A stretch of 64,000 nucleotides of DNA, taken from an uncultured Bacillota bacterium (lineage in GTDB: Bacteria > Bacillota_I > Bacilli_A > RF39 > UBA660). Location of the stretch: contig CAMBIR010000001.1 in assembly GCA_945867665.1 (NCBI GenBank), positions 30,168-94,167 on the forward strand. Reading direction: 5' to 3'. Of the stretch, positions 2,514-32,110 are shown one piece after another. The position numbers and the translations under genes are program-made. Position 1 is the stretch's first letter; each line of letters starts with the position of its first letter. The notes beneath the pieces are model-generated. The model did not search any database. It saw only the letters and a program-made list of their open reading frames with translations, and was not told the origin of the DNA.

Positions 2514-3224
2514 ATGTATGAGAAAATAGAAAAATTATATCGAGAAAAGAGCGTCAATAATATTATTTTTAGAAAATCATTTTCTTTTTATATTGTTACT
2601 TTAATTATTTTATGTTTATCTGGTATGTATCAAAAGTTTCTTTATATCATGCCTTTTTATATTATAATGGTTATTTATGGTTTTAAAAAAATGAGTGAGA
2701 AAATACTTAAACAAAATCTTTTTCTTACTTTTAATAAAAAAAGTACTGAAGATTTAGCGACTATTATTAATCGAAGGGATGTTAAATTAATGAAGAAATA
2801 CATTATTGATAATCAACTTGATAATAATGCCTGTCTTCAAAATATTATTGACCATTATCGAAATTTGTGTTCTAATCAGCGTACTCTATTAGACTCTTTA
2901 TTAGACTTTGGATTTTGGATTACTTGTGCGATATCAGTTGTTGCTCCATTTTTGGAGGCTAGTGGTATAAATGCTACTTTGGTTATTGAAATGTTTAAAA
3001 GATTATTGATTGTATTTTTTTATGTAGGAATATTTTATTGGATTTTCAAACATTTCTTTATTACTGTTCAATCTTTATATGGTAATTACAATATTAATAA
3101 AAACTTAGAAAAAATTTTTAGTGATATTTTTTTAGAGATGAATAAAACTAAGTTTGCTAAGGAAAGTAAAAACTTTAACAAAAGAAAAAAATTAAGAAAA
3201 CAAATACCTAAATTAAAAGTGTAA
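2514..3224 (+). CDS. Hypothetical membrane protein
   Basis: 236 aa with several hydrophobic segments. RBS AAGGAGGGG upstream. No recognizable family. Confidence 0.3.
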   Translation: MYEKIEKLYREKSVNNIIFRKSFSFYIVTLIILCLSGMYQKFLYIMPFYIIMVIYGFKKMSEKILKQNLFLTFNKKSTEDLATIINRRDVKLMKKYIIDNQLDNNACLQNIIDHYRNLCSNQRTLLDSLLDFGFWITCAISVVAPFLEASGINATLVIEMFKRLLIVFFYVGIFYWIFKHFFITVQSLYGNYNINKNLEKIFSDIFLEMNKTKFAKESKNFNKRKKLRKQIPKLKV

Positions 3225-3520
3225 ACCTATTTTTGAGTAGAGAAGGGGAGTGATAAAGATTCAAGTCCCCTATTTTATTTTAATAATTTAATAAAAAGTT
3301 ATTATTGATGTTAAATAATAATTTGGATATTTTATAATCAATTTTAGAGTTATATGATTATTATTTTGGTTATTAAATAAACAAAAATAATAATAAATTT
3401 CGACTTATTAAAGTTATTGATTTAATTTTATTTTTTGATAAAATTTAGTTAAATAATTATATTAAAATTTAAAAATCATAAGTTATTATCTAATAATGAA
3501 ATTGTTATTAACTGATTATC

Positions 3521-3746
3521 AAATTTAAATCGAAATTAAGAAAGATGGATAACTATCCATCTCGAGTTAAATTTTAGATAATTAAAAATGGAATCGAGAA
3601 TAAAAAAGATGGATAGTTGTCTGATTTTGATAAAATTTAGTTAAATTTAAATCGAAATTAAGAAAGATGGACAACTATCCATTTCGAGTTAAATTTTAGA
3701 TAATTAAAAATAGAATCGAGAATAAAAAAGATGGATAGTTGTCTGA
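3521..3746. repeat. Tandem direct repeat, 2 x ~122 bp at ~95% identity. Contains four copies of an AGATGGATAGTTGTC / GACAACTATCCATCT motif, including a perfect 20-bp palindrome AGATGGATAACTATCCATCT at 3543-3562
   Basis: Seen directly. Unit 1 is 3521-3642. Unit 2 is 3643-3746. Motif copies are at 3543-3562, 3608-3622, 3665-3683 and 3729-3743. Flanking sub-repeats 'gataaaatttagttaaat' sit at 3436 and 3628. Confidence 0.7.
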
Positions 3747-4045
3747 CTCAAATTAAATTTGAAAGCATTAAAATTGAATAATTATCCATATTAATTAAAT
3801 ATGTGAATGAAAATAATTTTTATTTTTATATTTAATTAAGAATTGATAAGGGCTAAATAAAGATAATTATATAATATATATGCATATAAGTTATAATTGA
3901 TATAAAAATATTTCTTATTTATTAGTTCCTATAATTTATATTATGTAAACTTCTATATCTAAAATAGAAAGAAAACCCTTATAATACAAGGGTTTAATTG
4001 TTTTTTTAGAACAGTTCTTTATCAGTATTTTTGGCATATAATCAA

Positions 4046-6589
4046 CTATTTTAACTTTTCTTTTAATTCATATAGTAAATTTAGAGCTTTTAATGGGGTT
4101 AATTCTAAGACATTTGTATTTTTGATGATTTCTTCAGTTTCACTTTTTTCTTTGATGTTTATGTTTTCTAGTGGTAAACTTGTTTGGATTGATATTTCCT
4201 TTTTACCTAGATCATTATTTTCGTATGCTACTAGTATTTCAGATGCTCTTCTTAATACTTCATTTGGTAGTCCGGCTAGCTTGGCTACGTTAATTCCATA
4301 GCTTTTGTCTACACTTCCGTCTTTTACTTTATGTAAGAAGATAATATTTTCTCCATCTTCGCTGGCAGAGACGTGTTTATTTTTTAGATGTTTTAATTCT
4401 TTTTCTAGTTTAGTTAGTTCGTGATAATGGGTTGAGAATAATGTTTTACATCCTATTTCGTTGTTTACGTATTCTAAGATTGCTTGAGCTAGGCTCATTC
4501 CATCATAAGTAGCGGTTCCCCTACCCAATTCGTCAAATAAGATTAAACTGCTTTTGGTAGCATTTTTTAATGCGGTTGTTGCTTCAATCATTTCGACCAT
4601 GAAGGTAGATTCACCACTTACCAAATCATCGCTTGCGCCTATTCTTGTAAAGATTTTATCAAATACTGGCATTTTGGCTTCTTTAGCGGGGACAAAACAT
4701 CCTATTTGAGCCATGATAACAATAATGCCTAATTGTCGCATATAAGTGCTTTTACCGGCCATATTTGGTCCTGTAATTAGTAGTGTATAGGTGCCGTTAT
4801 CCATAATAATATCGTTAGGGACATATTCTCCTTTGATTACTCTTTCTACAACAGGGTGCCTTGAATCAATTAGTTTAAGACTATGGTCTAGTGTCATAGT
4901 AGGACGTGTATAGTTATATCTTTCGCTAACCAAAGCAAAACTTTGAAGAACGTCAATTTCACTGATTGTTTTGGCTATTTTTTGGAGTTTAGGAATATAT
5001 TTTTTGATTTTATCTCTTATTTCAATAAATAATTCGTATTCTAGGTTAATGATTTTTTCTTCAGCACTTAAAATTAAGTCTTCTTTTTCTTTTAATAAAG
5101 GTGTAATAAAGCGTTCACAGTTTGTTAGAGTTTGCTTTCTAATGTATCCCATATCTTCAGTAATAAGGTTTAAATTTCCTTTGGATACTTCAATGTAATA
5201 ACCAAATACTTTATTGAATCCTACTTTTAAGTTTTTGATTCCTGTTCTTTCTTTTTCTTCTAATTCAAAGTTACTGATGAAGTTCTTTCCCCCACTCCGT
5301 AAATCTTTTAATTCGTCTAATTCACGGGAGTATCCTTCTTTGATTAAGTAACCTTCTTTAATGGTAATGGGTGGGGCTTCATATAGAGAATTCTCTAGTA
5401 ATTCATATAAATCATCTAAGTCATCGATAGTACTATAGAAGTTAATTTGCTTTAACATTTCTGAGATAATAGGAAGAACTTTAATGGAGTTTTTTAATTG
5501 AATTAAGTCTCTTCCGTTTGCGTTTCCTAAAGCAATTCTACCACTTAATCTTTCTAAATCATAAATTTCATATAGATTTTTTCTTAAGTCTTCAGTTAAA
5601 ATAAATTCATCGATTAATTTGCTTACGACTTCATGTCTTTTTTCGATTTTTCTTTTTTCTTTTAGAGGAGTTTCTATCCATTGTCTTAATTTTCTACTTC
5701 CCATAGCAGTTTTGGTATTATCTAGAAGCCATAATAGAGAATAATTTCTATCTTTTAAGCGAATACTTTCGGTTAATTCAAGGTTTCTTTTGGTATGAAT
5801 ATCCATCTTTAAGAAATCATCATTTTCATTGATGATTACCCTTTGTAAGTGTCCTAGACTTCTTTTTTGATTGATGACTAAATAATAAAGAAGGTGTTTA
5901 ATTGCCGTAATATATCTTTGGTCAGTTACATTTTTATAACAAAATTTGTATTCTTCTGTTTCTAAGATATTATCAACAATTGTTACGGTTAAATGATATT
6001 GCTCTCTTAATAGTTTTTCAATAGAAGGATTAACCGCTTTATTTACAACAACTTCTTTTAGTTCGAAAGAAAGAATTTCATTAATTAATTTATTGGTATC
6101 ATGTGGGATAATTTCAGCGTGTAATTCGCCGGTTGTGATATCCGTATAAACAATGGTATAACAATATTCATAGTCATAAACACTTCCAATATAATTGTTG
6201 CTTTTTTCGTCTAGACTACCAGAGGAGATAATGGTTCCGGAAGAGATAACTTCGGTTACATCCCTTTTGACGATTCCTTTTGCATTTTTAGGATCTTCTA
6301 ACTGTTCACAAATAGCTACTTTAAATCCTTGTTTGATTAGTTTATCGACATAGACATCTACAGCATGATGAGGAACACCACACATTGGTACTCTTTCGTC
6401 TAAGCCAGCATTTCTTCCTGTTAGAGTTAACTCAAGAGCATGGGATACAACTTCGGCATCTTCAAAAAACATCTCATAAAAGTCTCCTAGGCGATACAAT
6501 AATATGACATCGGGATATTTATCTTTTAGTTCTACATAGTGTCGCATCATAGGTGCTAATTTTGTTCTATCTATTTCACTTATTTTCAT
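4046..6589 (-). CDS. mutS: DNA mismatch repair protein MutS
   Basis: 847 aa. The N-terminus LAPMMRHYVELKDKYPDVILLYRLGDFYEMFFEDA is the MutS mismatch-binding domain. Walker A GPNMAGKST and the TFMVEM...LILFDELGRGT ATPase motifs are present. Confidence 0.9.
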   Translation of the reverse strand: MKISEIDRTKLAPMMRHYVELKDKYPDVILLYRLGDFYEMFFEDAEVVSHALELTLTGRNAGLDERVPMCGVPHHAVDVYVDKLIKQGFKVAICEQLEDPKNAKGIVKRDVTEVISSGTIISSGSLDEKSNNYIGSVYDYEYCYTIVYTDITTGELHAEIIPHDTNKLINEILSFELKEVVVNKAVNPSIEKLLREQYHLTVTIVDNILETEEYKFCYKNVTDQRYITAIKHLLYYLVINQKRSLGHLQRVIINENDDFLKMDIHTKRNLELTESIRLKDRNYSLLWLLDNTKTAMGSRKLRQWIETPLKEKRKIEKRHEVVSKLIDEFILTEDLRKNLYEIYDLERLSGRIALGNANGRDLIQLKNSIKVLPIISEMLKQINFYSTIDDLDDLYELLENSLYEAPPITIKEGYLIKEGYSRELDELKDLRSGGKNFISNFELEEKERTGIKNLKVGFNKVFGYYIEVSKGNLNLITEDMGYIRKQTLTNCERFITPLLKEKEDLILSAEEKIINLEYELFIEIRDKIKKYIPKLQKIAKTISEIDVLQSFALVSERYNYTRPTMTLDHSLKLIDSRHPVVERVIKGEYVPNDIIMDNGTYTLLITGPNMAGKSTYMRQLGIIVIMAQIGCFVPAKEAKMPVFDKIFTRIGASDDLVSGESTFMVEMIEATTALKNATKSSLILFDELGRGTATYDGMSLAQAILEYVNNEIGCKTLFSTHYHELTKLEKELKHLKNKHVSASEDGENIIFLHKVKDGSVDKSYGINVAKLAGLPNEVLRRASEILVAYENNDLGKKEISIQTSLPLENINIKEKSETEEIIKNTNVLELTPLKALNLLYELKEKLK

Positions 6590-6727: not shown

Positions 6728-7738
6728 CTATTCGTTTGGATTGATGTATCTTTTAATTTTTAAATTTGATTCAATTGATGATTTATCTACTTGAGAATAA
6801 ATCATATCTTCAATCTTTTCTAATTCTTCTTGTTTTTGAATGATATATTTTTCTTGGATTTTTTTCTTATTTTCTTCTAATTTTTGTTTTGATTTTATTA
6901 ATTTAAAATTGAGATAACAACCAATCCATAAAGTATTCATACATTCTTTTAATTTTTCGTTATATGTCTTTTGAAAAAAATCATCGCTTTTTGAAATTTG
7001 TTTTTTGTAATCAAATGGATTTAGGGATATTCTAATTCCTGTATTTGCAAGGTTACATCCACTCATATTAGTATTAATTTTTGTTATATATTCTATCCCA
7101 TTAATTGTAAGTGAAGATAAATCAATTCCACTAAGGTTTGATTTGGCAATTTTTGTGTTTTTTGCATGATTTAATTCAAAGTTTGAATTAGAAATATCAG
7201 AATCATAAATGTGGATAGACTGTATTTTTGAATAATCTTGATTAATAAAAGTAACACCAGAAAAATAACAAGCAGATATATCTATTTTAGACTCTGTTAG
7301 GGCTTCATGACTTTTGGTTAAGTCAATTTTAGCGTTTGTCATGTTATAGTTAATGTGATAATCTATACCAAATAAACTTTTATTGATGGAGTAAATTTTT
7401 TCTAGTCCTTGTTTATCTATTTTCAGATTTTTATTCTTTGTTTCGTTAATAGGAGTACTAGAGAAAGTATCTAAGGTTAGATTAGTATACTCGTTTAAAA
7501 TTTTCCATGAAACATTAGAAAAATCAACTTCACTTAAGTCTAGTTTTCTTAAGAAATCACCCGACCATACTGGTAGTTTTGCTTGAATTTTCTTTTCTTT
7601 ATTTAATGTTACGGTTTCAAATAAAAGTATCTCTAAGGTTTCTTTAGGAAGTTTAAATTTTTGATTATCAGGCATATCTTTTAATATTTTTGAGACTTCT
7701 TTTCTTAATTCGTTTCTACCATTTTGATTGAGTTTCAT
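6728..7738 (-). CDS. Hypothetical protein with a central pentapeptide-repeat-like region
   Basis: 336 aa. The central stretch has repeated A(D/N)LxG-like five-residue periodicity (SNLSGIDLSSLTINGIEY..). The K/E-rich C-terminus looks like a coiled coil. Confidence 0.3.
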   Translation of the reverse strand: MKLNQNGRNELRKEVSKILKDMPDNQKFKLPKETLEILLFETVTLNKEKKIQAKLPVWSGDFLRKLDLSEVDFSNVSWKILNEYTNLTLDTFSSTPINETKNKNLKIDKQGLEKIYSINKSLFGIDYHINYNMTNAKIDLTKSHEALTESKIDISACYFSGVTFINQDYSKIQSIHIYDSDISNSNFELNHAKNTKIAKSNLSGIDLSSLTINGIEYITKINTNMSGCNLANTGIRISLNPFDYKKQISKSDDFFQKTYNEKLKECMNTLWIGCYLNFKLIKSKQKLEENKKKIQEKYIIQKQEELEKIEDMIYSQVDKSSIESNLKIKRYINPNE

Positions 7739-7840: not shown

Positions 7841-9073
7841 CTATTTCATTAAATCAATTGCTTTTCTTACCTTTATATCATAGATAAGAGCATCTTGTCC
7901 ACCTAATGAAGATTTTACATCTTCTTCAGTCATATTATACTTCTTTGCTAAATCTTCGATTTCTTTTTTGGCTTCATCATCACTAGCTTCAATCTTTTCT
8001 TCTTTGATAATTGCATTTAAAAGATAACTATTTTTTAGTCTTGTTTCGGCTTCTTTTTTCATGTGGTCGATGATATCTTCTTTGGTTGTTCCTGCATATT
8101 TTAAGTATAATTCTTCATTGATTCCTTGAGCGGACATATGTGTCATGAAATCATTATACATTGCTTCTGCTTCTGCTTCGATAATTTCATCATCTAATTC
8201 TATTTCCATATTGCTTGTTGCTTTTTCTAGTAAGTCATCTACATATTTCTTTTCAGCATCTTGTTCTTTTCTTTCTTTGATTTCTTCTTTCATTTTCTTT
8301 TCTAAATCTTCTTTTGTTTTGACATCTTCCATGCCTAAATCTTCAAAGAAATCTTCATCTAAAGTAGGAACTTCTTTTGTTTTAATTTCGTTTACCTTTA
8401 CTTTAAAGATAACCTCTTTACCAGCAAGAGATTCTTCTTGATATTCTTCTGGGAATGTTAGAGTTAAATCTTTTTCTTCTCCTTTTTTCATACCAATAAT
8501 TCCTTCTTCAAAACCTGGAATGAAAGTATGACTACCAATTTCTAGAGAATAATTCTCTCCTTTTCCTCCATCAAAAGCAACACCGTCTTTAAATCCTTCA
8601 AAGTCAATAACTGCAGTATCTCCTTCTTCAACTGCTCCATCTTCTTTAATTACTAATTCGGTATATCCTTTTAATAATCCATCGATTTTTTCTTTGATTT
8701 CTTCTTTAGATACTTTAACTGCACTCTTTTTTACATCTAAATTCTTGTATTCTCCTAATTTTACCACTGGTTCTAAGATAAAAGTAAAGTTTACTTCTAA
8801 TTCATCATCTGTTACTTTTACTACATCAATTTTTGGCTCTAAAATTGGTAAAATTTTACCTTCTGATAAGATTCTATTGTATTCTTTATCTACTACGATA
8901 TCCGCAGCTTCCATGATAATTTGACCTGGATAGTTTCTTTCAAAAACACTTCTTGGTGCTTTTCCTTTTCTAAATCCATCAATTTGATATTTTGGACTTA
9001 TTTTTTTGAATGCTTGTTCCTTTGCTTTTTCCCAATCTTCTTTTTGTGTTTTGTAATTTACTACTTTTTTCAT
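7841..9073 (-). CDS. tig: Trigger factor (ribosome-associated chaperone/PPIase)
   Basis: 410 aa. The N-terminal signature GFRKGKAP matches the GFRxGxxP ribosome-binding motif. Acidic C-terminal chaperone arm. Confidence 0.8.
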   Translation of the reverse strand: MKKVVNYKTQKEDWEKAKEQAFKKISPKYQIDGFRKGKAPRSVFERNYPGQIIMEAADIVVDKEYNRILSEGKILPILEPKIDVVKVTDDELEVNFTFILEPVVKLGEYKNLDVKKSAVKVSKEEIKEKIDGLLKGYTELVIKEDGAVEEGDTAVIDFEGFKDGVAFDGGKGENYSLEIGSHTFIPGFEEGIIGMKKGEEKDLTLTFPEEYQEESLAGKEVIFKVKVNEIKTKEVPTLDEDFFEDLGMEDVKTKEDLEKKMKEEIKERKEQDAEKKYVDDLLEKATSNMEIELDDEIIEAEAEAMYNDFMTHMSAQGINEELYLKYAGTTKEDIIDHMKKEAETRLKNSYLLNAIIKEEKIEASDDEAKKEIEDLAKKYNMTEEDVKSSLGGQDALIYDIKVRKAIDLMK

Positions 9074-9089
9074 GATATTTCTCCTTTTA

Positions 9090-9569
9090 TTATAATATTT
9101 CTACAACTTTAACATTGTAAGTTCCATTTGGGCTTTCTACAGCACGAATATCGCCTGCTTTCGCATTCATAATTGCTTTAGCAAGAGGTGATTCATTAGA
9201 AATTTTGTTATTTGATGGGTCAGCTTCTTTTGAACCAACAATCATATATTCTTCTGTCTCATCATCATCTTCTTCGATGTACTCGATTTTTACGGTTGTT
9301 CCAAGACATACGGAGTCGGTTGAATTTTTCTCAATAATATGGACATTTTCCATAATTTTTTCTAACTCTTGAATTCTTCCTTCTACTTGTGCCTGTTCAT
9401 TTCTAGCTGCGTCATAATCGGCATTTTCAGATAAATCTCCTAAGGCTCTTGCTTCTTTTAAGGCTTTGATTACAGCGGGCCTTTTCACATTTTTTAATTC
9501 ATTTAATTCTGTTTCTAATTCTAAAAAACCTTGATCGGTTAAATATACTTTTTCATTATTTGTTTTCAT
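9090..9569 (-). CDS. greA: Transcription elongation factor GreA
   Basis: 159 aa. LTDQGFLELETEL...DLSENADYDAA is the GreA coiled-coil with acidic tip. The C-terminal FKBP-like domain is present. Confidence 0.85.
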   Translation of the reverse strand: MKTNNEKVYLTDQGFLELETELNELKNVKRPAVIKALKEARALGDLSENADYDAARNEQAQVEGRIQELEKIMENVHIIEKNSTDSVCLGTTVKIEYIEEDDDETEEYMIVGSKEADPSNNKISNESPLAKAIMNAKAGDIRAVESPNGTYNVKVVEIL

Positions 9570-9641
9570 TATGTATTCCTCCTCAACTATTTCAAAATTT
9601 TACTATAAAATCAGTATTTTGTCAAGAAAAAAATAGAAGTT

Positions 9642-11030
9642 CTATTTTTCTATATCATTTACTAATTTTTTAAAAATATCCCCTCTTTGATAAGCATTTT
9701 TGAACATATCAAAACTGGCACTGGCAGGAGAAAATAAGATAACTTCTCCACTTACTGCTACCTTTTTGGCAACTGAGATTGCACTTTCTAAATCGTCTAG
9801 GACGTAGATTTTTAGACTTCTATTATTTGTTCTTTTTACCTCTTCCATTACGGCGTCATAAATTTTATTTTTGGTTTGGCCAAATAAGATTAATTTTGAG
9901 ACTTTTTCTGTTACTGGTTTTGCTAATGGTGTATAGGGAATGTTTTTATCACTACCGCCTGCAATTAAGACGATTTTTTCAGAAAAAGCAGATAAACCAC
10001 CTAAACATTTATCTGGAGTGGTACTAGCGGAATCGTTATACCATTTTACACCATTTATTTCTCTTACAAATTCAAGACGGTGAGGAACACTAGGAATGTT
10101 TTTTAAAATGGCTTCTAGGTTAGATGTGTCTTTGATAAAGTCTTTGATTGCACTAAGAGCAGCACAGATGTTGATGTAATTGTGTTCTCCCTTTAAAATA
10201 AGCTTTTTTGTATCGATGATTTCTTTTTCTTTATTCCATATTTTGTTTTCTTTTAGGTAATAAGTATCTAAATTTGAATTAGTGCCGAAATAGCGTACTT
10301 CTCCTTCGAATTCATGAGCAAAGTTTTTAACGATTTCATCTTCGCTATTTAAAACGAGAATGCTATTTTTTTTCGCATTTTTAAAGATATATTTTTTGGC
10401 ATTAATATATTCTTCATAACTTCCATGAATGTCTAAGTGATCAGGGCTTATGTTAGTAATAACGGCGATATCTGGAGAGGTTCGCATTCCCATAAGTTGG
10501 AAACTAGATAGTTCTAAAACAACGATATCAGTTTCTTTTAACTGTTCAATTTTTGTAAATAGTGGCGTACCGATATTTCCACCTACATAGACGTTATAGC
10601 CAAGATTTTCTAAGATTTTAGAGACAATCGTAGTTGTGGTGGTTTTTCCTTTACTTCCTGTTATTCCAATTACTTTACAAGGTGCATACTTGATGACTTC
10701 TTCAACTTCCGTTGTGATGTAGCATCCCCTACTTTCTTCTTCTTTTAAATAAGGATTATTAGGTAAGAGACTGGGGCTTCGGAAAATGATGTCAAATGAT
10801 TTTAAGCCTTCTAAGTAATTTTGTCCTAAGAAACATTTTAGTTTCTTTTCGTTAATTAATTTTTGAATATCTTCGTTTATATTTTCTTTTTCTTTTTGGT
10901 CAAATAAGGTAACGTCGCAATTTTCACGTGCTAACTGTTTTAAAAGGGGGATGTTGCTTACGCCGGCACCTAGTACGGCAATTTTTTTTGTTTTTAGTTC
11001 TTTTTTAAAAAATTCATAGTTTTCTTTCAT
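9642..11030 (-). CDS. murD: UDP-N-acetylmuramoyl-L-alanine--D-glutamate ligase MurD
   Basis: 462 aa. N-terminal Rossmann KIAVLGAGVSNIPL. Mur-ligase P-loop GITGSKGKTTTT. C-terminal Mur ligase domain. Confidence 0.75.
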   Translation of the reverse strand: MKENYEFFKKELKTKKIAVLGAGVSNIPLLKQLARENCDVTLFDQKEKENINEDIQKLINEKKLKCFLGQNYLEGLKSFDIIFRSPSLLPNNPYLKEEESRGCYITTEVEEVIKYAPCKVIGITGSKGKTTTTTIVSKILENLGYNVYVGGNIGTPLFTKIEQLKETDIVVLELSSFQLMGMRTSPDIAVITNISPDHLDIHGSYEEYINAKKYIFKNAKKNSILVLNSEDEIVKNFAHEFEGEVRYFGTNSNLDTYYLKENKIWNKEKEIIDTKKLILKGEHNYINICAALSAIKDFIKDTSNLEAILKNIPSVPHRLEFVREINGVKWYNDSASTTPDKCLGGLSAFSEKIVLIAGGSDKNIPYTPLAKPVTEKVSKLILFGQTKNKIYDAVMEEVKRTNNRSLKIYVLDDLESAISVAKKVAVSGEVILFSPASASFDMFKNAYQRGDIFKKLVNDIEK

Positions 11031-11072
11031 TTTTACACGTCCATTTCTATTTGGTAAAATACTTCTATTGAT

Positions 11073-11384
11073 TTAACTTTTATAAATATCTCTGATGATG
11101 GAGATAGGGATATATTCATTGTCGATAGTGATAAGATTATTTTTATTTCTGGCAACGATTCTTTTTTGTAGGGTATCATTATCGGTAATGATAGTTACAT
11201 CGGCTTTATAGACATAATCAGGAGCATTAAAGATGTTGTCTATTTTTCTATCAATAGAGATATAGTCATATCTTAGATTTTTAGTTTCTTTTTTATTATC
11301 CATACTATTATAGACTTTTTGAATGCTATTTACTGTTTTATTAATTTTATTGTGATACATTTTTGGTAATTCTTTATGATTCAC
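11073..11384 (-). CDS. Hypothetical protein
   Basis: 103-aa ORF between murD and the clpX-like gene. No recognizable motif. Confidence 0.3.
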   Translation of the reverse strand: MNHKELPKMYHNKINKTVNSIQKVYNSMDNKKETKNLRYDYISIDRKIDNIFNAPDYVYKADVTIITDNDTLQKRIVARNKNNLITIDNEYIPISIIRDIYKS

Positions 11385-11441
11385 TTATTTCACCTCATTT
11401 AAGCGTATGATGGGAAATATAATTTATACATAAAAATATGC

Positions 11442-12854
11442 CTAGATTTTGTTATTTTTCTTAATTAAGCGATAGCCTTTAGGATTTTCTTTGGTTACGG
11501 GTTCTAGGATTAATTCTTGGTAATCGTTAGGTTCTTGGCTAATTAGGGCCATTGGTTCTTTGAATACTGCTTCAACACTTCCAATTAGTCCTCTTGCTCC
11601 GGTGTTCTTTTTGAAGGCATTATGCGCGATTTGTTTTATTGTTGTATCATTAATACTAAGAGTAATTCCTAATTCATTTAAAAGATGTTTTTTTTCTTCT
11701 AGTGTTTGGTTATTTTTGTTTTTTAAAATTTGAATTAAATCATCTTCGGTTAAGGGGTTTAGTTCGATAATGTTAGGAAGTCTACCTAATAATTCTTTTT
11801 TTAGGCCAAATTGATATAACTCTTCAGTAGTAATCGGCGTAGTTTCTTTAGATGCATGATTATTTTTAAAACCAATTGTTTTTGCAGGCTTTCCTCTTTT
11901 TTCTAATAGTTCAGTAAAAGCACCTGAGGCAATTACGGTGATGTTTTTAGTACTCATCGTTTTGTAGTTTGGTAGCATTTCTGTTCCAAGGTTAACGGTG
12001 TACTCGCCATCTTCTAATAATTTTAATAATTCATCTTGAACGCCGCCACTTCCTACTTCATCAACTTTATTGGTGCTATTGCTAGAACTTTTTTTATCAA
12101 TTTCGTCTAAAAAGATGATTCCCCGGCTAGCGGATGAGAGATTGTTATTTGCTTTTTTTAATAGTTTAAGAAGAATATCATCAACGTATTTTCCAACGTA
12201 TCCACTAGCGGTTAAGCTAGTGGCATCGGTAACTACGGTTGGAACATTTAGTCGTTTGGCGATATTTCTGATAATTTCTGTCTTGCCAACGCCGGTAGGG
12301 CCAATTAATAAGATATTATTTTTTACGTTGCTTCTGGTATTTTGCCAAAGAATTGAGATGATATCTTCAATTGCTTTATCTTGACCAATAATAGTATCTT
12401 TTAATTCTTGGACTAGAATTTTAGCGTCAAATAACTCATTTTTCTTTAAGGATAATTTGGCTAGGTTTAAATCGGGTTCAAAGACAGTTTGTTTTTCATT
12501 TTTACAATAGAAGTTTATTCCTTCATAGTCACCTGCGTAGGGGGTAATGAACTGATAAGTATTTTTTTTGATGGCATTAAAGTAATCTTTTGCATATTCC
12601 TTAATTAAGACAAGTGGATGTGTAGTTAGTGTATTTTTTGATTCTTTGGTAAAAATAATTCTTTGTCTAAAACCATAACCATATTTTTTTTCTGGGGTTA
12701 GCATATAAGGATATTTTTTTCCACTTTTGGTGATAAATTCGTTTGTTTCTTCATCTTGGTGTCCAATGGTGATGTGATCTGGTAAATAAGTTATTGTTCC
12801 ATCTTTTTCTTTTTTTCTTCTAAATATTACAGCAATTTCAATTTTGTTTTTCAT
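11442..12854 (-). CDS. clpX: ClpX-family AAA+ unfoldase with a non-canonical N-terminal domain (no Cys4 zinc-binding domain)
   Basis: 470 aa. Walker A LLIGPTGVGKTEI. ...DATSLTASGYVGKYVD... and GIIFLDEIDKK (Walker B) align with ClpX. An IGF ClpP-docking tripeptide (KTIGFKN) is present. The first ~140 aa contain no cysteines. Confidence 0.6.
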   Translation of the reverse strand: MKNKIEIAVIFRRKKEKDGTITYLPDHITIGHQDEETNEFITKSGKKYPYMLTPEKKYGYGFRQRIIFTKESKNTLTTHPLVLIKEYAKDYFNAIKKNTYQFITPYAGDYEGINFYCKNEKQTVFEPDLNLAKLSLKKNELFDAKILVQELKDTIIGQDKAIEDIISILWQNTRSNVKNNILLIGPTGVGKTEIIRNIAKRLNVPTVVTDATSLTASGYVGKYVDDILLKLLKKANNNLSSASRGIIFLDEIDKKSSSNSTNKVDEVGSGGVQDELLKLLEDGEYTVNLGTEMLPNYKTMSTKNITVIASGAFTELLEKRGKPAKTIGFKNNHASKETTPITTEELYQFGLKKELLGRLPNIIELNPLTEDDLIQILKNKNNQTLEEKKHLLNELGITLSINDTTIKQIAHNAFKKNTGARGLIGSVEAVFKEPMALISQEPNDYQELILEPVTKENPKGYRLIKKNNKI

Positions 12855-30103: not shown

Positions 30104-32110
30104 TCAAGAAAAGTAATTTAGAAGGAGATGGACTTCTTTTTCTTTTTCTTTTGGACATACAATCCAGATTTCTTTTTTGGCAATCATCATGGCGGTTAAG
30201 AGAAGTAATTTTTTTTGGTAAGTACTTTCGTTTTTTGAAAATAGTTCTTCTTCTTTTTGATAAAAATATGGGAGAAAAATGATGGGATAAGATGTTTTTT
30301 TTGTAAAGATGTTTTCTATTTGGTAAGTTCTATTTTCTATTTGAAAATGAGATTTGTCTAATTTTTCTACGTTAAATTCTTGAAAAAATTGTTTTTGTTC
30401 TTTTTCATCCGTTACTGCTATTAAGGGGGTAATTGGGGATGAGGTTAGAATCATTTTTAGGTTGTTTGTTTTAGTGGCAATGGATGATTTATTTATTAAA
30501 AATACTTTTAAGGCTTTTTTCTTTTTTAGAATAAGGTTGTTTATTACGTTAAGGTTTTCTTTTAGAAAGGTATTGGTTAGGGTTTCTAATTCTTTTAGAG
30601 AAAGATATGTGTTTTTAAAGCAAAGTCTTTTGTTCTCACTTAGATATTTTTGATATTCTAATTGAAGGGGGAGATTCATTTTAAAGAAAATACTCTCTTC
30701 AGCTTTTTTACTTAGGATTATGAGATAATTATTTTTAGGAATTATACTTGTAATATCTAAGAAAATGGGATAAGTATTTTTGTTTAGTGCTTTATTGATT
30801 CTTTCGTTTAAAGTTCTTTCTTCAACCATGTTTTTTTTCTTTTTTTCATTTTGATAATTGTCTAAAATTATTTTTAATAATTCTTTTTGTTCTTTGGTAA
30901 AGTTTGTTTTAGATAAATTATTTATGGTGGTTAGGGGAATTAATATTTTGTTGATAAAATCGATGAAATAACTATCTTGAGTGGTGTTTTTTAGTTCTTG
31001 ATAGATTTCTTCTTCTTCTCTTTTTTCAAAGGGCCATCTTCTTTTAATTAGTTCGTAAGTTAATACTTCTATTGTTTTTTCTTTTTGTTGATTTTGAGAT
31101 AAATCAATGGTATTTTCTTCTTTACTCTCTAATTTTTTTTGATAGATGATTTTTGTTTTATTTTCTAGGGTAAAGGTATGAAATTGATAGTGATAATTGA
31201 TGCAATTTAGATAAAGAAAGTTGGCAATATCTACTTCTACTTTTGTTGGCATACTTTCGTTTAGAATGGTTCTAAGATTATTTTTTCTTTTGATAATTTC
31301 TCTTTCATTGAATTTCTTTTTAGATAATTTACTTTGGAGAAACATTCTTTTATAAAGGTAGCTATGATAGTCTTTGAAAGTTTCGAATTCGAGACAGTCT
31401 TGGTTTAAGTAGATGTAATCTTGAAAGGTGGTATATAGTTTTTTTAGTAATTCTTTGTTTTGAAAGATGGTTTCTTGTAAGTAGTTTTTAAAAATATTAT
31501 ATTTTAAGGCAGGGGTTATCTTTTTTTCTTCTTCCATTAAATATTTTTCTTGAATTTCTTTTAGAGAGTGGCATTTTATTTTGAGGTTGTTTTTTTCTAG
31601 CTCTTTTTGAATTGTGGTATTATCTGCTTGGCTATTTGTTATAATTAAGATATTTTCTTCAAGATAGGTTTTGTTTTTGATTAAGTATTTTATTTTATTT
31701 ATGATGAAGGGAACATTGTTTTTATTGTTTAGATAAACAAGTTGTGGCTCGTGGGTGGTGATTATATTTTTTTGGGTTTTGTCTAGGAGGTTATTTATGA
31801 CGATATTATTTAATTTATTGTTATTTAGATATTTTTGGTTGTGGTATTTTAAAAGTTGTTTTTCTTCTTTTTGTAGTTTTTCTATTTTTTGGTAGCCTGG
31901 TGTTGTTTGATATAAAAATTTTTCTTGTTCTATTTTTTTAAAAAGATAGTTATATTCTTGCATGAAAGTAGTGTAAGTTTTATTATCGATATAAATATTT
32001 TTGCTTAAAAAGCGAGTATATTTTTTTAAAAAGTTATCAATATCGTATTGAAAGAGATTTATTGTATTATTCATTTTATCATCCTTTCTATGATTATAAT
32101 CATAGCACAA
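30104..32110 (-). CDS. Large hypothetical protein (K/N/E-rich)
   Basis: 668-aa uninterrupted ORF. No confident motif assignment by eye. Confidence 0.3.
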   Translation of the reverse strand: MCYDYNHRKDDKMNNTINLFQYDIDNFLKKYTRFLSKNIYIDNKTYTTFMQEYNYLFKKIEQEKFLYQTTPGYQKIEKLQKEEKQLLKYHNQKYLNNNKLNNIVINNLLDKTQKNIITTHEPQLVYLNNKNNVPFIINKIKYLIKNKTYLEENILIITNSQADNTTIQKELEKNNLKIKCHSLKEIQEKYLMEEEKKITPALKYNIFKNYLQETIFQNKELLKKLYTTFQDYIYLNQDCLEFETFKDYHSYLYKRMFLQSKLSKKKFNEREIIKRKNNLRTILNESMPTKVEVDIANFLYLNCINYHYQFHTFTLENKTKIIYQKKLESKEENTIDLSQNQQKEKTIEVLTYELIKRRWPFEKREEEEIYQELKNTTQDSYFIDFINKILIPLTTINNLSKTNFTKEQKELLKIILDNYQNEKKKKNMVEERTLNERINKALNKNTYPIFLDITSIIPKNNYLIILSKKAEESIFFKMNLPLQLEYQKYLSENKRLCFKNTYLSLKELETLTNTFLKENLNVINNLILKKKKALKVFLINKSSIATKTNNLKMILTSSPITPLIAVTDEKEQKQFFQEFNVEKLDKSHFQIENRTYQIENIFTKKTSYPIIFLPYFYQKEEELFSKNESTYQKKLLLLTAMMIAKKEIWIVCPKEKEKEVHLLLNYFS

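Follow-up and report, generated by a model that had tools for sequence, protein, structure and literature searches.

A tandem array of quasi-palindromic DNA units lies beside a chromosomal dif site, on the side of its XerC arm, in an uncultured Bacillota bacterium (RF39; UBA660) and in relatives of widely varying distance. We found it in a stretch of 64,000 nt (hereafter the window; forward-strand positions 30,168 to 94,167 of contig CAMBIR010000001.1, GenBank assembly GCA_945867665.1), which is AT-rich (about 30% GC) and whose lineage is known from gut metagenomes only. Array and dif share a spacer of 821 bp without coding sequence (3225–4045) between two converging genes, a 236-aa open reading frame (ORF) and mutS. 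A first-pass annotation of the same DNA had rightly pointed to a non-coding gap of about 820 bp here and to repeats within it, and had left out dif, which begins 134 bp past the end that it gave the repeats. By analogy with the plasmid sites cer and psi, we suggest that the units may be phased binding sites of a sequence-specific protein which, assembled into a nucleoprotein structure beside the XerC arm, would act on dif, a reading that we hold tentatively and place slightly short of an even chance.

The dif site

The 28 bp at 3924–3951 (+) consist of two 11-bp arms, partial inverted repeats of one another, around a 6-bp centre (AGTTCCTATAA, the XerC arm; TTTATA; and TTATGTAAACT, the XerD arm), the arms being assigned by homology to the E. 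coli and B. subtilis dif sites. They are identical at 25 of 28 positions to the experimentally defined B. subtilis dif, ACTTCCTAGAA-TATATA-TTATGTAAACT (Kono et al. 2011, PMC3025954). In our scan of the window and the related loci, the site was single in every locus: the next-best score of a position weight matrix (PWM) was below 12, or 13 for the reverse reading, while real sites scored 35–42. Gene orientation switches exactly at this point, as expected at a terminus. To the left, the three window ORFs are on the + strand, as are all 12 genes of a contig (L001) that is identical to the window and extends its left flank, the last three of the 12 being the same window genes; to the right, the − strand carries 39 of the 44 ORFs that reach 120 aa. 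GC skew also flips sign across dif, although it is noisy further on and the left flank extends only 3–10 kb. After mutS, the 28-mer recurs with 0–2 mismatches in seven close lineages, in which the spacer around it is only about 67% identical or unalignable. Distant lineages have the site with 3–5 mismatches. We thus identify 3924–3951, by its sequence and setting, as a canonical XerC/XerD dif, and the 821-bp spacer as the probable chromosome dimer-resolution locus.

Compared with the dif sites of B. subtilis (served by CodV and RipX) and E. coli, the core site in the window is in no way unusual: it has the same 28-bp, 11-6-11 layout, is single-copy in the loci scanned, sits where gene orientations converge, and in related lineages has xerD adjacent. 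What differs is the conserved repeat array next to it. None of ten window ORFs tested is a xer gene. In two distant lineages a XerD equivalog stands beside the site (L124 and L131, scoring 332.9 and 337.1 against an NCBIfam cut-off of 329.6), and xerD with deoB directly adjoins dif in four (L123 3953–6020, L124 4025–6081, L125 2520–4603 and L131 180–2235), so that the recombinase gene is genetically linked to its own site there, as is likewise the case for xerS and difSL.

A separate observation concerns a relative without the array (L032), where two copies of GTATTATATATTATGATTATTATA lie 39 nt apart beside the XerC arm of dif, at 10600–10700 in a window-like orientation. They share the core TATATTATG, which is similar to the centre of dif and the beginning of its XerD arm, and may be pseudo-dif or XerD-binding remnants.

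Anatomy of the array

The real repeat unit is about 58–64 bp long and occurs in four head-to-tail copies plus a decayed fifth, all on the + strand. Unit 1 (3521–3584) has a TCGAAA box followed by AAAGATGGATAACTATCCATCTCGA and a full quasi-palindrome (nhmmer E 2e-16; hairpin z −3.0), while in unit 2 (3585–3642) a TCGAGA box is followed by AAAGATGGATAGTTGTCTGA and only the left half-site is intact (nhmmer E 6e-10; unfolded, z +0.66). Unit 3 (3643–3706) duplicates unit 1 and unit 4 (3707–3770) duplicates unit 2. The decayed unit 5 (3747–3800) overlaps the tail of unit 4, has its core TGAATAATTATCCA at 3775–3788, and is better preserved in sister strains than in the window. Farther left, 22 nt at 3433–3454 (+) copy 3625–3646 exactly. 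They are what is left of the tail of an older, decayed unit, and account for the place where the first-pass annotation had let the array start. Its two 122-bp tandem units are borne out both by TRF (period 122 at 3521–3746, 1.9 copies, 97% matches, score 431; underlying period 64, 3.5 copies, 69% matches) and by a repeat search, which found the copies 3521–3642 and 3643–3764 to be 90% identical without gaps.

Four copies of a 15-mer, AGATGGATAGTTGTC, had also been reported, in alternating orientation. The copies are real: two are exact, at 3607 and 3729 (+), and two have one mismatch on the − strand, at 3548–3562 and 3670–3684. Allowing up to three mismatches, the 64 kb contain five matches against 1.74 expected, a number reached by none of 100 shuffles, and no match falls outside the spacer within the window. 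The alternation is only apparent, because each unit core is quasi-palindromic and units 2 and 4, whose right half has decayed, retain the left half alone. Nor is the 20-bp palindrome perfect as had been claimed, since in AGATGGATAACTATCCATCT (3543–3562) arms of 9 bp flank a non-symmetric AC centre (9+2+9).

Collected from all lineages, 33 distinct units align over 64 columns with zero gaps (consensus AAATTTAAATCGAGAATTAAAAAGATGGATAATTATCCATCTCGAATTAAATTT). Each comprises a TCGAGA box (columns 10–15), five variable nucleotides and the quasi-palindrome AAAGATGGAYAAYTRTCCATCTCGA, the second conserved block being AAAGATGGAYAATTRTCCATCTCGA at columns 21–45. The right arm, TTATCCATCTCGA, mirrors TCGA-GATGGATAA, except that the left arm has about one helical turn inserted after TCGA. 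Successive unit centres are spaced by a median of 62 bp, and by 62–64 bp in 24 of 31 intervals, which is about six helical turns. The flanks of the units diverge with the host while the core stays fixed.

In units 1 and 3 the predicted minimum free energy structure is a hairpin whose outer and inner stems are separated by a 10-nt bulge (z −2.2 to −3.4); units 2 and 4 are unfolded (z +0.0 to +0.9). In the 33-unit alignment 75.9% of cells at paired positions could pair, against 74.5% with partners shuffled, and the covariation score (0.143 vs. 0.134 in shuffles) was reached by 102 of 500 shuffles; at the one variable inner pair (columns 30/35), standard pairs, wobbles and mismatches all occur with no preference for compensating changes. 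The palindromy thus belongs to the consensus, and departures from it are uncompensated. In distant lineages the run after the hairpin is just three Ts (CTTTAACAT, CTTTCATTA), few for an intrinsic terminator. With the constant distance between the two conserved boxes, the lack of any Rfam match and the chance level of promoter-like sites (12 vs. 10.6 expected), these results favour recognition of the units by a protein as double-stranded DNA, rather than as RNA or as a simple terminator.

Strains with MutS 98–99% identical to that of the window have two to five units, in differing orders, and the 2 x 122-bp duplication is therefore only a recent strain-level expansion of the array. Several Logan contigs of the species end at window position 3620, exactly where the 122-bp copies diverge, and others end elsewhere in the spacer; the array coincides with break points of several assemblies of the species.

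Conservation beside dif

Two samples of relatives were examined. The MutS-anchored sample, of contigs with MutS 80–99% identical to that of the window, was chosen without regard to the motif; five of its seven lineages have the array beside dif, a sixth retains a decayed remnant, and in the seventh there is no array at all. There are four units in L027 and five in L034 (MutS 90%), two to three in L029/L030 (85%) and in L114 (84%), and four to five in L116 (83%). At 90% MutS identity the spacer is only about 67% identical, and beyond that it is mostly unalignable, yet the units are still recognizable. On its far side the spacer is bordered by different genes in different lineages, namely the 236-aa gene, a DUF2726 gene, a DUF6020 gene with a 167-aa gene, or a type II-A CRISPR-Cas9 locus. 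Among the genome-contig matches listed, which include one close relative (L034), those with MutS at most 69% identical have no dif near mutS.

The motif-anchored scan searched JGI/ENA metagenome contigs with the 23-nt core AAAGATGGAYARYTRTCCATYTC, for which the chance expectation ranged from well below one to about one match. It returned 12 loci, nine of them adjoining dif. Ten are AT-rich contigs with arrays of one to five units, eight of which have a clear dif-like 28-mer (3–5 mismatches) about 100–450 bp from the units; in another (L125) the dif-like sequence is a weaker variant whose XerC arm is good, and the last (L122) stops about 110 bp past its unit. A homologue of p260, a window protein described below, is encoded by nine of these ten contigs at 45–61% identity, the tenth being too short, and MnmA is 59–74% identical where present; the array contigs therefore come from much more distant organisms. 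The remaining two matches (L128 and L130) are single terminator-like hairpins after genes of unrelated, GC-richer organisms. On L128, two parS-like sites (AGTTTCACGTGGAAC) lie at 1114–1167 beside a 623-aa gene, which we take from its size and context to be mnmG (gidA), and this contig is probably the origin region of that unrelated organism.

When loci were oriented so that dif reads from the XerC arm to the XerD arm, the units of the 15 loci with a recognizable array (15 of 15, a count that overstates independence, since the lineages are related) all fell at positions −97 to −521 relative to dif; this is its XerC side, and the XerD side had none. The order of the block with respect to its neighbours is xerD-deoB-[array-dif]-p260 in L123, L124 and L126 and xerD-deoB-[dif-array]-p260 in L125 and L131. 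Judging from these gene orders, the segment of array and dif has been inverted as a block against both flanks between lineages, its internal order being kept. The only 11-mers around dif that are not AT-rich and are common to at least four of the six lineage groups are k-mers of the unit core. As a negative control, 1.22 Mb of other loci, from Firmicutes and viruses, were searched with a hidden Markov model (HMM) of the unit and gave no match at E<1e-3, and the 64-kb window contains no further copies. What the first-pass annotation had named as counting against it, a motif that occurs nowhere else and an unconserved region, is not what we see: the unit is kept in distant relatives, always beside dif.

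p260, a candidate unit-binding protein

Near the array the window encodes a conserved 260-aa protein, p260 (1555–2337, +), with a predicted N-terminal helix-turn-helix (HTH) domain like that of Xre and P22 c2. No Pfam or NCBIfam family matched it above threshold, HTH matches being sub-threshold, and phmmer and profile searches against PDB sequences gave no firm match (a weak ArgR-N-like one at E 0.018). The AlphaFold2 model is confident for residues 1–82 only (predicted local distance difference test 80–90), the remainder being helical at low confidence. The best Foldseek matches to the N-terminal domain were P22 c2, CapH and controller C-proteins (template-modelling score to target 0.62–0.75), with every E-value at least 0.43 and alignments that cover the N-terminal 64–70 residues only; the modelled likeness to Xre-type repressors is thus suggestive only.

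The family is small and clade-restricted, with 298 representatives at E<=1e-3 among 1.84 billion proteins. Its mean identity is 46%, and its recognition helix, LGVSRQMVYNYL, is nearly invariant, in parallel with the invariance of the DNA core of the unit. Every locus that is long enough has a p260 homologue 0.3–4 kb from dif, always transcribed towards dif, and the array is never in the p260 promoter. On this circumstantial evidence p260 is the best candidate for the protein that would bind the units.

Comparison with known accessory systems

Chromosomal dif is known from model organisms as a bare 28-bp site under FtsK, and accessory DNA and proteins have been described for plasmid and phage Xer sites. 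The accessory sequences of cer and psi, of about 180 bp, are considered to wrap into a nucleoprotein complex by which recombination is controlled. They sit on the XerC-binding side of the core, bind PepA together with ArgR or ArcA, and are needed for recombination and for its directionality. The array resembles cer (ColE1; ArgR, PepA) and psi (pSC101; ArcA, PepA) in being a few hundred bp of non-coding DNA on one side of an Xer core, in having palindromic (here putative) protein-binding sites, and in lying on the XerC side, as it does in all 15 loci. It differs in that cer and psi have unique sequence with one ARG or ArcA box, in place of a regular 62–64-bp tandem of one unit; their core is plasmid-borne and degenerate (8-bp centre in cer; mutated arms), whereas dif here is chromosomal and canonical with a 6-bp centre; and, unlike in cer and psi, the array is missing in some relatives and its presumed binder is not obviously ArgR, ArcA or PepA. 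Given the variable spacer, the flipping orientation, the canonical chromosomal core and the absence in some relatives, the array, if the analogy is sound, works like a cer/psi accessory sequence and is not a member of that class.

Other precedents share single features with this locus. Extra protein factors at dif are exemplified by XafT (IMEX-encoded, from TLC-phi), a dimerizing factor that contacts XerD and stabilizes synapses, although no mobile element is evident at the array. A lineage-specific DNA-binding gene beside a terminus cis-element, as p260 is here, is known from rtp, which adjoins TerI/TerII in B. subtilis, and tus, which adjoins TerB in E. coli, but p260 has no detectable similarity to RTP or Tus and the array units lie on one side of dif only, in the same direction. 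Repetitive extragenic palindromes (REP/BIME) are likewise imperfect palindromes clustered between convergent genes, with protein-binding and hairpin potential. REPs are dispersed in tens to hundreds of copies, whereas the unit of the array was found only beside dif in every genome sampled, within the loci scanned.

Interpretation of the array

We propose that each unit is a putative binding site for a sequence-specific, probably dimeric, DNA-binding protein, for which p260 would be the best candidate. With a pitch of about six helical turns, all sites would face the same side of the DNA, and proteins bound to several of them could assemble into a single nucleoprotein complex next to the XerC arm of dif. 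Such a structure would act on dif, for instance to promote or limit synapsis or recombination, or as a mark or shield of the site. The anatomy, the conservation and the polar linkage to dif are observations; that a protein binds, which protein this is, and that Xer recombination is affected at all we infer from anatomy and conservation only. Among the identities that the first-pass annotation had offered, that of a protein-binding array or recombinase site is favoured by the fixed box spacing, the 33 units without indels, the 62–64-bp pitch and the linkage to dif; those of iterons or a partition site find no support, as there is no rep or par gene nearby and no plasmid or phage similarity, and the locus is a terminus, not an origin.

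Several observations weigh against the proposal. In model bacteria, a dif with canonical arms and a 6-bp centre is known to need FtsK alone, without accessory factors. One lineage (L118, MutS 82%) has only a single decayed remnant and another (L032, MutS 80%) has dif and p260 and no recognizable array; since both have dif, the array is dispensable or replaceable. L032 moreover keeps the candidate binder without the array, and the side of dif on which p260 itself lies, that of the array or that of the XerD arm, differs between lineages, with other genes sometimes standing between p260 and the array. The units run one way with respect to dif in the window, L027 and L034 and the opposite way in L030, L114 and L116. 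The centre of the nearest unit is 122–370 bp from dif with no helical phasing by inspection, and, where the accessory sequences of cer and psi, about 180 bp long, directly abut the core in a fixed geometry, the spacer here is variable (about 100–340 bp) and the orientation flips. Among strains with MutS 98–99% identical, the palindrome centre has 1–3-nt indels (AACT, AAACT, AACTT, AACTTTT), which a rigid dimer site would tolerate poorly. Finally, the placement on the XerC side could partly reflect shared ancestry rather than selection.

Each of the rival explanations accounts for fewer observations. Were the units tandem weak intrinsic terminators or hairpin insulators that stop read-through from one of the convergent genes across dif, several observations would fit: on its opposite strand a full unit forms the hairpin AGATGGATA/TATCCATCT with a T-run behind it, the − strand of units 1 and 3 folds (z about −3.3), unit 1 was scored terminator-like on that strand, the array of L125 begins about 10 bp past the stop of the p260 ORF, the off-target hairpins of L128 and L130 stand singly just after genes in unrelated organisms, and, the locus being convergent, either orientation faces a gene. 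We nonetheless consider this unlikely, because units 2 and 4 are unfoldable, stem changes are uncompensated, only three Ts follow the hairpin in distant lineages, and both convergent genes already own strong GC-rich terminators; terminators would, moreover, have no need for an invariant TCGAGA box at fixed spacing, or for conservation across relatives at 45% identity. That the region encodes one or more small structured RNAs is highly improbable. The hairpin potential of units 1 and 3 and the roughly 690 bp between two terminators with no ORF longer than 33 aa would leave room for them, but no Rfam family reaches threshold (the best are spurious plant and animal miRNA hairpins at E 0.08–8), promoter-like sites are at the chance level given above, there is no covariation, and the orientation of the array flips between species. 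Whether run at the gathering threshold or permissively, Rfam searches yielded nothing but such miRNA-like hairpins and a tRNA elsewhere, and with two of four units unfoldable the structured RNA locus suggested by the first-pass annotation finds no backing.

An origin of the array as a decaying remnant or satellite of a Xer-integrated element (IMEX), or as a neutral tandem satellite in a gene-poor terminus spacer, fits its constant place on the XerC side, where an element would sit beside a reconstituted dif, its presence or absence among close relatives, its rapid shifts of copy number within the species, and the dif-side spacer being a hot spot for variable cargo (the 236-aa gene, DUF2726, DUF6020, CRISPR-Cas9). 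It is distinctly unlikely all the same: neither the window nor the related loci have a second dif-like site (attL) at a PWM score of 12 or more, the flipping of unit orientation relative to dif is unlike directional Xer integration, element genes are lacking, as is any likeness to plasmids or phages, and the divergence of unit flanks with the host around a fixed core speaks for vertical descent under constraint, not recent transfer. A replication-fork barrier, with Ter-like units and p260 as the terminator protein, would suit an array at the terminus beside a lineage-specific DNA-binding protein gene, and the asymmetry of the unit, with its displaced TCGAGA box, could give polarity. This we regard as quite improbable, as the units are on one side of dif only with none in the 60 kb to its right, as they point the same way within an array and in opposite directions in syntenic species, which would reverse a polar trap, as the fold matches of p260 are Xre-type repressors and not RTP or Tus, and as some relatives have no array.

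A number of named elements were also considered and rejected. Plasmid iterons would be direct repeats of 17–22 bp beside a rep or par gene and an AT-rich unwinding element, against a unit of 62–64 bp with no neighbouring rep or par gene; blastn of the array found nothing in 72,556 plasmids and a single 43-nt chance match in 50,697 phages, and a 20-nt degenerate motif gave 17 single matches in viral contigs with no similarity beyond about 22 nt, attributable to chance. A fork trap of the RTP/Tus kind would have opposed polar sites on both sides, whereas the units are one-sided and co-directional and p260 may fold like Xre. A miniature inverted-repeat transposable element (MITE), which the first-pass annotation had proposed as a remnant, and dispersed REP repeats find no support, no further copy having turned up in the window or in the 1.22 Mb of other loci, and the strain contigs being unique up to the internal duplication. 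A CRISPR remnant, suggested by the Cas9 beside dif in a relative, would have unique spacers and cas genes nearby, and here the whole 122/64-bp periods repeat with no such spacers; the 36-nt CRISPR repeat found in L118 is unrelated. As a DnaA box, TTATCCATC agrees with seven of the nine positions of TTATCCACA, at a locus that is the terminus. Resemblances to Fur/PerR boxes, parS, Noc-binding sites (NBS) and matS were a poor fit.

Bordering genes and other features of the window

The left convergent gene (2514–3224, +) encodes a putative membrane protein of 236 aa, called as an ORF with about four hydrophobic segments; it is lineage-specific, with only four homologues found. The right one is mutS (4046–6589, −), with five MutS Pfam domains. 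Array and dif are both enclosed by the GC-rich terminators of these genes: a likely one for the left gene at 3245–3281 (+), read by eye as a hairpin GGGGA...TCCCC followed by a T-run, and an intrinsic terminator of mutS at 3973–3995 (−), called by the terminator scan, whose hairpin also scores on the + strand. The scan did not call the hairpin at 3245–3281 because its loop is 16 nt; the motif AGAAGGGGAGT inside this region is kept at the same border in relatives. Only two small ORFs occur in the spacer (30 and 33 aa), and both were judged spurious. The neighbourhood is one of chromosomal housekeeping genes (mnmA, mutS, tig, greA).

The left border of the spacer has a motif of its own, AGA(A/T)(A/T)GGGGAGT, which lies in the terminator hairpin whichever gene precedes (window 3240–3252, and the same place in L027, L034, L114, L116, L118, L030 and L032). 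In the window it reads GAGAAGGG, occurs once in the 64 kb and points towards dif; GAGAAGGG is the B. subtilis SpoIIIE recognition sequence. It may be just a conserved terminator, or a translocase-orienting signal beside dif. In some strains of the same species (L004, L005) a clean deletion has removed 79 bp upstream of the array (window 3287–3365).

In L118 (also L119 and L144) the XerC side of dif has, at a distance of about 1 kb, a complete type II-A CRISPR-Cas9 locus with cas9, cas1, cas2 and csn2 and an array of 36-nt repeats (8640–9553 and 9553–12544). Strains whose MutS is 99% identical (L133–L135, L138–L140, L142) have transposase-related genes (HTH_Tnp_2, a 546-aa ORF or DDE_Tnp_1) in place of the 336-aa gene upstream of mutS (window 6728–7738); the region near the terminus is an insertion hot spot. 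Farther right, a DpnII-type restriction-modification cluster (22659–25522, −) comprises the DpnII endonuclease (22659–23513), a D12-class N6-adenine methyltransferase (24668–25522) and, in between, two small ORFs. It falls where the GC content of the window is lowest (0.23–0.25), which suggests an acquired island. At 40388–45611, a block of + strand genes within a − strand region includes two large proteins with Listeria-Bacteroides repeat domains, one of which has an N-terminal pilin-type methylation motif.

Implications for the terminus

Recognition of dif fixes the replication terminus of these metagenome-assembled genomes. In the searchable literature we found no description of the unit motif or of dif-adjacent arrays, and an evenly spaced, conserved array locked to one side of a chromosomal dif would be unusual. 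In its strongest form, which we consider unlikely, the proposal is that this clade of gut Bacilli has a dedicated dif accessory apparatus, a p260-bound phased array that synapses, activates or gates XerCD; if true, this would be a chromosomal counterpart of cer/psi or of phage XafT, beyond FtsK-driven recombination alone. The array recurs in lineages whose spacer DNA cannot otherwise be aligned, and inversions have not parted it from dif. We read this as a sign that the terminus of widespread uncultured gut Firmicutes has a further level of control or architecture, so far undescribed, and it provides a concrete pair for experiments, one DNA unit and one candidate HTH protein.

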